Of a DNA stretch of 64,000 nucleotides, positions 24,035-25,039 are shown piece by piece. The stretch lies in the NCBI RefSeq assembly GCF_058153355.1, contig NZ_CM177019.1; one strand, 5' to 3'. The notes under the pieces are model-generated. The model made no database searches. It was not told where the DNA came from and saw only the letters and a list, made by a program, of their open reading frames with translations. The translations under genes and the position numbers were made by a program. Each line of letters opens with the position of its first letter. Position 1 is the first letter of the stretch.

Positions 24035-25039
24035 TTATTTTTTTAACACAATACCGAATAGGTCATAAATGAACTTAATAATATCTTCGTTAATGAGATC
24101 GTTGTCATTTATATCTTTGTCATTCATATCTTTGCCAATTACAATGGGTCCCGTTGAGTCTGGGTCAAATGATTGAACGAATTTAATTAACGTCTCACCT
24201 GCAGCCTGCATTTTTGTAATGTCTGTGATGTCTTTATTGTCTTCTTCAGCCTGCTTTTTCCTATCATTCAGAATTAAATTAAAATCCAGTTCATTTTTAT
24301 CTACCAATTCTTTCATATCCATCAGGCTTTTTTTCATCACTTGACGAGATAATATTTTTATCTTACTTGTTATGTAGTTTTCACAATAATCATTAACTCT
24401 TCGTGCTGTTGCTATGATATCAGCTGATGCACTACCATATGAAAATGAAAGTAAAAGGGAAGCCAAGGGTTTTAAGCGAGCATCGTTCTTTGCTTTATAT
24501 GCATTTTCCAAATTTAAAAAACCTTCGCTTACAGTTTTTAGATGTAATGACGCTACAGGTACTTTACCATAGGGTTTATCATAAAATAGCTGAATTGCGG
24601 AGGGAAGGTCATTCTGATTTATTACATCGAAAGTACACCTGTCTATTAGAGTTGCATCGCTATTTTCCATTGGATTACAAACAAAATCCATCGCATAATG
24701 AAAAATCGCCCGTTCTACAAATGCAGAAATATAGTCACGATCACCTAATTGCTCATTAGTGCACTCTACAATACACTCGTCAACCCAATCTTTGAGAGCA
24801 TTTATTCGTCCAATTAAGGAAACATTCTTTTCACTTGCAGTCCATAAATTATGGGTAATCCTCTGAATAAACAAATCTATTTTTGCAATAATCGCAGCGC
24901 GATTACTCATCGTTGCATAATCAACCGATTTATTATACATATCCTTAAGTTTTTCCGAGCTTACATTTTTATTATCGTATTGATTTGAGTTGAGGCTTTT
25001 ATTAAAGTAATCTCTTGAACTTCCTATTATACTTGACAT
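24035..25039 (-). CDS. hypothetical protein, AT-rich gene (occupies the position of K-12 yjbL+yjbM)
   Basis: Uninterrupted 334-aa ORF in a strongly AT-rich block between dusA and zur; no domain recognisable by eye. Confidence 0.6.
   Translation of the reverse strand: MSSIIGSSRDYFNKSLNSNQYDNKNVSSEKLKDMYNKSVDYATMSNRAAIIAKIDLFIQRITHNLWTASEKNVSLIGRINALKDWVDECIVECTNEQLGDRDYISAFVERAIFHYAMDFVCNPMENSDATLIDRCTFDVINQNDLPSAIQLFYDKPYGKVPVASLHLKTVSEGFLNLENAYKAKNDARLKPLASLLLSFSYGSASADIIATARRVNDYCENYITSKIKILSRQVMKKSLMDMKELVDKNELDFNLILNDRKKQAEEDNKDITDITKMQAAGETLIKFVQSFDPDSTGPIVIGKDMNDKDINDNDLINEDIIKFIYDLFGIVLKK

Follow-up and report, generated by a model that had tools for sequence, protein, structure and literature searches.

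Hyperdivergent loci under diversifying or balancing selection are known from Escherichia coli, fliC and the hsd/immigration-control region among them. Here we describe a gene whose alleles are similarly deep, an intact open reading frame (ORF) of 334 amino acids (aa) between dusA and zur in a 64,000-nucleotide (nt) stretch of contig NZ_CM177019.1 (RefSeq assembly GCF_058153355.1), hereafter the window. Its counterpart in strain K-12 is yjbL-yjbM, which has been placed among young operons without a known function (PMC12218254) and to which a constitutive RpoD (σ70) promoter has been assigned in the spacer on the zur side (PMC3946193). The K-12 zur/yjbL spacer is also an H-NS-bound 'promoter island' beside genes predicted to be foreign, as are the malM/yjbI and yjcF/actP regions (PMC3661553, Table 1). 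The M47I mutation of K-12 yjbM has a fitness effect of ~1% (PMC2784333), and an Stx2a prophage has been reported between yjbM and dusA (PMC10562709). The protein family concerned, DUF2713, is mentioned in no paper found in our literature search. What is already known is thus a catalogued, uncharacterised family; what we add is its population structure, that is, an islet present in some genomes and missing from others, and whole-gene allele classes ~31% apart.

The ORF runs from ATG to TAA with no internal stop, and the same 1005-bp coding sequence (CDS) is called by the Prokaryotic Genome Annotation Pipeline (PGAP) in the near-identical strain 2020CK-00188; a 99% identical PGAP-annotated protein is already in RefSeq. 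At the base composition of the islet the chance of 334 open codons is ~4e-11, and the longest frame is 335 aa as observed compared to a maximum of 171 aa across 500 shuffles of the islet, so the ORF has not arisen by chance. The protein matches Pfam DUF2713 (PF10897) over aa 85–306 (E = 4.9e-54; score 183.9 bits, gathering cut-off 27), and searches of NCBIfam and of the PDB by sequence gave no match. The gene has the position of K-12 yjbL-yjbM between dusA and zur and the same orientation, and it is collinear with the pair, YjbL (84 aa) corresponding to about aa 1–74 and YjbM (235 aa) to the remainder. The ORF is an intact gene of the DUF2713 (YjbL-YjbM) family. An earlier note on this DNA, made from the letters alone, had reported an intact ORF in which no domain could be recognised. 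The ORF is borne out by the gene call, the PGAP CDS, the shuffles and the translation and termination signals; the protein does fall in a catalogued domain family, and the note was right in so far as that family has no known function.

Signals around the gene are listed in Table 1. The Shine-Dalgarno sequence reads as a strong ribosome-binding site, and the terminator begins 37 nt past the stop codon. Upstream, the candidate promoter is the best match in a consensus scan, in which sites were no more numerous than in shuffles. Where the islet ends towards zur, within the divergent promoter region, lies an imperfect inverted repeat with 16-nt arms (25204–25219 and 25265–25280; 88% complementarity, 45-nt gap), a possible binding site for a regulator. 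A scan of 22–27 kb against Rfam gave nothing above threshold.

In K-12 the gene is broken. Translation of the K-12 DNA gives YjbL in one frame and YjbM in another, and PGAP annotates a single 'frameshifted DUF2713' pseudogene in K-12 strain DH1, as the earlier note had anticipated in suggesting that one gene may be split into yjbL and yjbM there. The alignment which it proposed locates the lesion, a 1-bp contraction of an A-tract. Intact K-12-clade alleles carry A8 (CGTAAAAAAAATGTG), and K-12 and MY1-8 carry A7 (CGTAAAAAAATGTG), with a second frameshift at a G-run in MY1-8. The note had also suggested that the window gene may be the ancestral, unbroken version of the K-12 gene, and this we can discard: with 66.5% DNA and ~48% protein identity to the K-12 allele, the window allele belongs to a different class, and the true intact counterparts of the K-12 allele are the 318–340-aa K-12-clade alleles that retain A8. 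Four protein clusters have an in-frame tract one Lys shorter at the K-12 frameshift site. Both forms, the out-of-frame A7 and the in-frame tract, thus occur at the position seen in K-12 and MY1-8, and the A-tract may slip repeatedly. Since the K-12 copy is frameshifted, K-12 knockouts, overexpression libraries and phenotype screens are uninformative on DUF2713; K-12-based functional work on the family has all used a broken copy, and intact alleles such as that of the window are the right material for studying it.

The gene occupies a discrete islet, whose boundaries were obtained by aligning the window to the gene-less strains HH97 and ST131 (sequence type 131). These have ~19 bp in common (ATATGCGAyCAGGCAAT) where other strains hold 1.48 kb. 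Identity to other E. coli drops from 0.95–1.00 to at most 0.8 at ~23780 and recovers at ~25280, close to the limits of the AT-rich block (23680–25300) given in the earlier note, and the islet ends show no convincing terminal repeats. The G+C content (GC) of the gene is 0.332 compared to a window mean of 0.502 (z = −3.2), and just three stretches in the 64 kb fall below 0.36. We then scored 5426 complete genomes. The ST131-type empty junction was found in 1123 (20.7%) and the HH97-type in 2; islet flanks were present in 4303, which with the 1123 islet-free genomes make up the 5426, and the DUF2713 CDS was detectable in 4268. As dusA, our control, was present in 5425 genomes, the denominator is sound. 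The DUF2713 gene is the sole cargo of an islet inserted between dusA and zur in ~79% of E. coli. The islet thereby has the properties of xenogeneic DNA, being AT-rich relative to the genome, sharply bounded and missing in some strains. Horizontal acquisition, as the earlier note had it, is supported by this discrete block with an empty junction common to 1123 genomes, by the lack of a relative in the representative genome of any other species, and by the published H-NS binding and predicted foreign genes at the K-12 locus.

Divergence between alleles is confined to the CDS. This is the main oddity of the locus, and it was absent from the earlier note. We compared mainstream strains with nearly identical flanking genes. 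Between EC556 and K-12, identity is 98.3% in dusA, 95.8% in the terminator-side flank, 68.9% in the CDS, 93.9% in the promoter-side flank and 98.7% in zur; between EC556 and PCN033 the corresponding values are 98.7%, 88.5%, 69.8%, 93.4% and 99.4%. In 60-bp windows there is a step in identity exactly at the start codon (0.75 to 0.95–0.98), and another at the stop (0.70 to 0.87–0.90). Synonymous divergence (dS) between classes is 0.5–0.87 and peaks in the C-terminal third, with a ratio of nonsynonymous to synonymous divergence (dN/dS) of 0.36–0.57 (0.35–0.67 across all pairs compared); within the K-12 clade dS is 0.09–0.135 and dN/dS 0.35–0.42. Synonymous divergence in the CDS is thus far above that of the adjoining non-coding DNA, and simple ageing of the islet cannot explain it. 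The pattern points to old allele classes that would be either maintained or swapped, in the latter case as cassettes of the entire CDS by way of the conserved flanks. Behind this would lie balancing selection or else an influx of diverged alleles, after which the flanks alone became homogenised.

The classes differ greatly in frequency. Window-type alleles (at least 95% identity) were found in 18 genomes and STEFF_1-type alleles in 206; a further ~139 genomes of EC556 type cover at least 80% of the query, and all other CDS-bearing genomes belong to the K-12 clade. The EC556 allele is itself a mosaic with a STEFF_1-like N-terminus. An espX5 gene at least 99% identical to that of the window likewise occurs in 18 genomes only, not necessarily those that carry the window allele, and the window EspX5 is 93–94% identical to that of most E. 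coli. These counts, together with the few near-identical dusA matches, suggest that the window comes from a rare, divergent E. coli lineage.

Conservation in the protein is uneven. A family alignment (A1) contains three or four clades and has invariant blocks at aa 50–66 (IIAKIDLFIQ.IT.NLW), 100–114 (DR..I...V.RAIFH), 189–204 (LK..ASLL.S.SY.SA) and 290–295 (S.DP.S); alignment A3 was also used for invariant columns. Across the superfamily conservation is sparse, with K53, D55 and F113 invariant, followed by W66, K71, R110 and D207. The polar residues among these (K53, D55, K71, R110 and D207) form no catalytic pattern of the His/Cys/Ser type, from which we infer a binding rather than an enzymatic function. 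The window protein, with a pI of 5.1, is acidic and lacks hydrophobic or transmembrane segments as well as a signal peptide. With E. coli sequences alone, AlphaFold2 (AF2) gave a poor model (predicted local distance difference test, pLDDT, 55), and with distant relatives added it reached pLDDT 72 and a predicted template modelling score of 0.71. In this model residues 1–39 are disordered, polar and rich in S/T/N/Q, and alpha-helices make up most of the body, together with a small beta-sheet at ~132–166. Foldseek searches with this model yielded no true fold match, the best E against the PDB being 1.6 and BFVD giving nothing.

The family is narrow in range. A homologue search covering 5.8 billion proteins returned named homologues from E. 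coli only, with the exception of a partial sequence under the name Klebsiella pneumoniae. Profiles run exhaustively against 1.84 billion representatives otherwise gave fragments and a few full-length relatives of 300–430 aa and ~20% identity, which share the signature AKLDxFLxxITxGxWxxSEK...DRxIFxF. The contigs of these distant relatives are short and rich in insertion sequences (IS), and come from human-gut metagenomes and, in one case, from an E. coli draft assembly; GC is lower in the genes of these relatives than in the flanks (0.39–0.45 against 0.47–0.57), and the flanks of one contig are ~91% identical to E. coli plasmids. Two scans of the representative genomes of 100,044 species found no confirmed relative of either group. 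The DUF2713 family is thus essentially confined to E. coli, apart from a small number of distant relatives whose contigs are plasmid-like and rich in IS.

Table 1. Positions of the DUF2713 gene, its signals and other features in the window
Feature	Position	Strand	Description
Intact DUF2713-family CDS	24035..25039	minus	334 aa; homologous to K-12 yjbL plus yjbM; ORF and Pfam match
AT-rich single-gene islet	23772..25250		~1.48 kb, GC 0.333; between dusA and zur promoter regions
Candidate sigma-70-like promoter	25203..25230	minus	GTGACA-16-AATAAT, 10/12
Shine-Dalgarno sequence	25046..25053	minus	AAGGTGGA, 6 nt 5' of ATG; read off the sequence
Codons of most conserved superfamily block	24881..24931	minus	aa 37-53 region onward; core motif IIAKIDLFIQRITHNLW at aa 50-66 (A1, A3)
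Site homologous to K-12 frameshift	24825..24832	minus	reads GAAAAGAA here, run interrupted
Greatest divergence between allele classes	24218..24278	minus	0.37-0.48 identity in 60-bp windows, ~aa 254-274
15-bp tandem repeat	24098..24134	minus	2.5 copies; encodes part of C-terminal insertion
Intrinsic terminator	23968..23997	minus	perfect 12-bp stem, 6-nt loop, T-run; inverted repeat I10
dusA	22636..23673	minus	neighbour
zur	25356..25871	plus	neighbour
EspX5 islet	3021..4313	plus	GC 0.32; between actP and yjcE; intact 430-aa pentapeptide-repeat protein (PGAP: yjcF or 'T3SS effector EspX5', T3SS being type III secretion system)
IS110-family transposase ORF	33348..34523	plus	between SopA-family gene and ubiC
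SopA-family islet	34995..36380	minus	yjbI/EspX4 position; GC 0.31; intact, 462 aa; pentapeptide repeats, SopA-like central domain

The best reading of these data, which we hold with middling confidence, is that the gene encodes a dispensable binding protein, silenced by H-NS, at a conflict interface. Here the protein would be non-enzymatic, its conserved N-proximal half (aa 47–115) serving as a scaffold and its fast-diverging C-terminal half carrying specificity. H-NS would normally silence the gene, as published for the K-12 locus, and the gene would be dispensable in the laboratory. Several old allele classes would persist because the binding partner is an external, fast-changing antagonist (a phage or host factor), and alleles would be swapped as whole-CDS cassettes through the conserved flanks. 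Several points weigh against this. Both the binding role and the 'antagonist' are read from the evolutionary pattern alone, and the H-NS evidence comes from K-12 rather than from the window strain or its allele. Of the genomes, 21% lack the gene, K-12, MY1-8 and F11 carry it frameshifted, and a dN/dS of 0.35–0.67 indicates only moderate constraint, all of which also fits a weak or lapsed function. Imports followed by flank-only homogenisation could give the contrast between CDS and flanks without balancing selection. Finally, as the AF2 model is of moderate confidence, the absence of a fold match is no proof of a new fold.

The alternative that survives best, although we consider it unlikely, is a functionless relic, that is, a foreign gene acquired once, silenced by H-NS and slowly decaying, with classes that are imports or products of old lineage sorting. 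The contrast between CDS and flanks would then arise as recombination homogenises similar flanks and cannot start in a diverged CDS. The relic reading is plausible in part. The absences just mentioned, the frameshifts, which lie in homopolymers, the upper end of the dN/dS range, the small effect of the K-12 yjbM point mutation and the silence of the literature on DUF2713 are all in keeping with a relic. However, dN/dS (0.35–0.57) is far less than 1 whether alleles of one class or of different classes are compared, and the invariant blocks are retained in proteins 48% identical and, in plasmid-borne relatives, at as little as ~20%. Moreover, most alleles keep a frame of 318–340 aa in AT-rich DNA where stops arise easily, and the shortened tract at the K-12 frameshift site is kept in frame in the four protein clusters noted above.

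A bolder version of the conflict reading, which strikes us as rather improbable, is that the allele classes are older than E. coli itself (dS 0.5–0.9 compared to 1–2% in flanking genes) and kept by balancing selection, and that DUF2713 is an unrecognised conflict-interface family, concretely a new family of secreted effectors travelling with the EspX4/EspX5 islets. If so, a pseudogene in K-12 and a protein unlike any known effector would explain why the family was overlooked.

The effector component of this proposal can be considered separately, and is improbable. Here the protein would be secreted by the type III system as an 'orphan effector' in the manner of EspX4 and EspX5, with an N-terminus that directs secretion or chaperone binding and a C-terminal half that acts on, or is recognised by, the host; it would decay in strains without an injectisome. 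Such a role is suggested by association alone, every homology test having failed. Two other single-gene islets in the window (GC 0.31–0.32) bear the PGAP labels EspX5 and SopA-family. Together with the DUF2713 islet they are missing in ST131, present in F11 with each gene a pseudogene, and H-NS 'promoter islands' in K-12. The yjbI/EspX4 gene is a pseudogene in O157 as well, and at the EspX5 site ST131 has lrgAB and a lysR-type gene instead. At 1.5 kb from the distant relative P0146 is a protein that combines pentapeptide repeats with an N-terminus resembling SopD2 (PDB 5cq9, E = 4.6e-6), another relative is convergent with an autotransporter gene, and the disordered, S/T/N/Q-rich first 39 residues would suit a secretion leader. 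Against this, the co-distribution comes from a handful of genomes, with phylogeny as a confounder, and no hidden Markov model (HMM) of SopD or any other effector family matched among 27 superfamily members (for SopD, none at E of at most 10). Comparison by hhalign with EspX5, YjbI and the SopD2-N protein gave probabilities of at most 1.2%, and SopD (5cpc) and SopD2 (5cq9) are absent from the fold-search matches. No chaperone gene is adjacent, nor do the small genes next to the distant relatives encode a chaperone domain. Three simple leader rules fail to tell the family from control ORFs, all three being satisfied by 1 of 26 members compared to 11% of controls, and dN/dS below 1 persists in lineages which mostly have no working injectisome. 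Homology to SopD/STE, to EspX5, to YjbI and to the SopD2-N/pentapeptide neighbour is rejected by the HMM and hhalign results. A profile of the WEx5F domain gathered just 3 matches.

We think it distinctly improbable that the gene by itself constitutes an anti-phage defence or exclusion system, whose product would sense a phage component with its variable C-terminal half and whose allele classes and nulls would be kept by frequency-dependent selection. Hyperdivergent alleles, presence/absence polymorphism and frequent nulls are typical of conflict genes, and the gene adjoins the dusA attB used repeatedly by prophages. However, PADLOC-DB 2.0 returned no family at E of at most 10, and no nuclease, ATPase, TIR or similar domain was found with Pfam or NCBIfam. 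The same family occupies the locus in every strain, unlike the varied systems of defence hotspots, the immediate neighbours are housekeeping genes, and in K-12 the gene is silenced by H-NS.

That this is a phage gene, part of a prophage beside dusA, can be dismissed: despite matches to the PHROG profiles phrog_29005 (E = 2.4e-58) and phrog_28007 and the presence of the gene on 12 IMG/VR contigs, it is refuted by the lack of any tblastn match in 50,697 phage genomes, by the position of the gene at, or at most ~1 kb from, a contig end in all 12, and by the breakpoint in one of them (L026), which is collinear with the window through the flank and the first ~110 bp of dusA and holds prophage DNA only beyond. 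In O157, moreover, the original dusA 5' fragment stands between the prophage and the gene, and we therefore take the viral matches to be overcalls at prophage boundaries. On L026, from a window-type lineage, the break from chromosome to prophage falls at window position ~23570, inside the dusA 5' end. This end of dusA is a recurrent prophage attB, occupied in O157 and B379, and annotation pipelines and PHROGs label the gene phage-associated solely because prophages integrate in the adjoining dusA.

A plasmid origin was rejected too, the 'plasmid' matches being mislabelled chromosomes, mini-chromosomes or a K-12 contaminant contig. In one such record (NZ_CP069917.1, 'Klebsiella oxytoca plasmid unnamed6'), a 17-kb linear contig carries E. 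coli K-12-type chromosome from lexA to tyrB, its protein accessions being the same as in E. coli records, and it is probably a contaminant contig in PLSDB/RefSeq. The 'yjbL/yjbM' placed beside blaSHV-12 in Klebsiella plasmid papers is probably a coincidence of naming. Among the distant relatives, the contig of P0152 (L014) also carries a 171-aa ORF (1077–1592, minus strand) which duplicates the N-terminal domain of P0152 and P0177 before diverging, and which has the appearance of a truncated paralogue amid IS elements.

The surroundings of the islet vary as well. The 1123 ST131-type genomes have a different dusA 5' end (MPAESHTVYPAYRFS...) with a CDS 42 bp shorter, and a spacer of 155 bp to zur (in ST131, L021, 6880–7090). 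On the other side, zur and dinF (window 25356–27617) are ~90–92% identical to those of most E. coli, with ~100% identity in yjbJ between them and 95–99% in dusA. The flank is a mosaic, and recombination in a divergent lineage is the suggested origin.

A gene nearly restricted to E. coli, whose alleles differ by ~31% in the CDS alone and have near-identical flanks, suggests a conflict of long standing, so far undescribed. If the gene is merely decaying foreign DNA, it would still be a clean example of an H-NS-silenced islet that persists and diversifies.

Compared to K-12 YjbL/YjbM, the window gene is intact and its allele has the slippery A-run interrupted; it lacks the 10-aa DAxKDKLDNx repeat units that K-12-clade proteins carry near the N-terminus, and has an extra 15-aa Asp/Asn/Lys-rich insertion in the C-terminal region, specific to 334-aa alleles. 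EspX4 (YjbI) and EspX5 (YjcF) are likewise encoded in single-gene islets with GC ~0.31 in the same 35-kb neighbourhood, and share with DUF2713 the K-12 'promoter islands', the joint absence from ST131 and the tendency to become pseudogenes. However, the DUF2713 protein has no sequence or profile similarity to them and no pentapeptide repeats, and its alleles differ by ~31% compared to ~6% for espX5. Salmonella SopD and SopD2 are of similar size (~320 aa), and their WEK(I/M)xxFF motif resembles the conserved [AE]K[IL]DxF[LI] block of DUF2713, 45–60 residues from the N-terminus; in the distant relatives W-D precedes the block, whereas the E. coli proteins lack the Trp. Unlike fliC and the hsd loci, DUF2713 is a one-species family whose product is a cytoplasmic-looking orphan without known phage or host exposure, yet it shares with them deep allele classes at a fixed site, near-identical flanks and null alleles.

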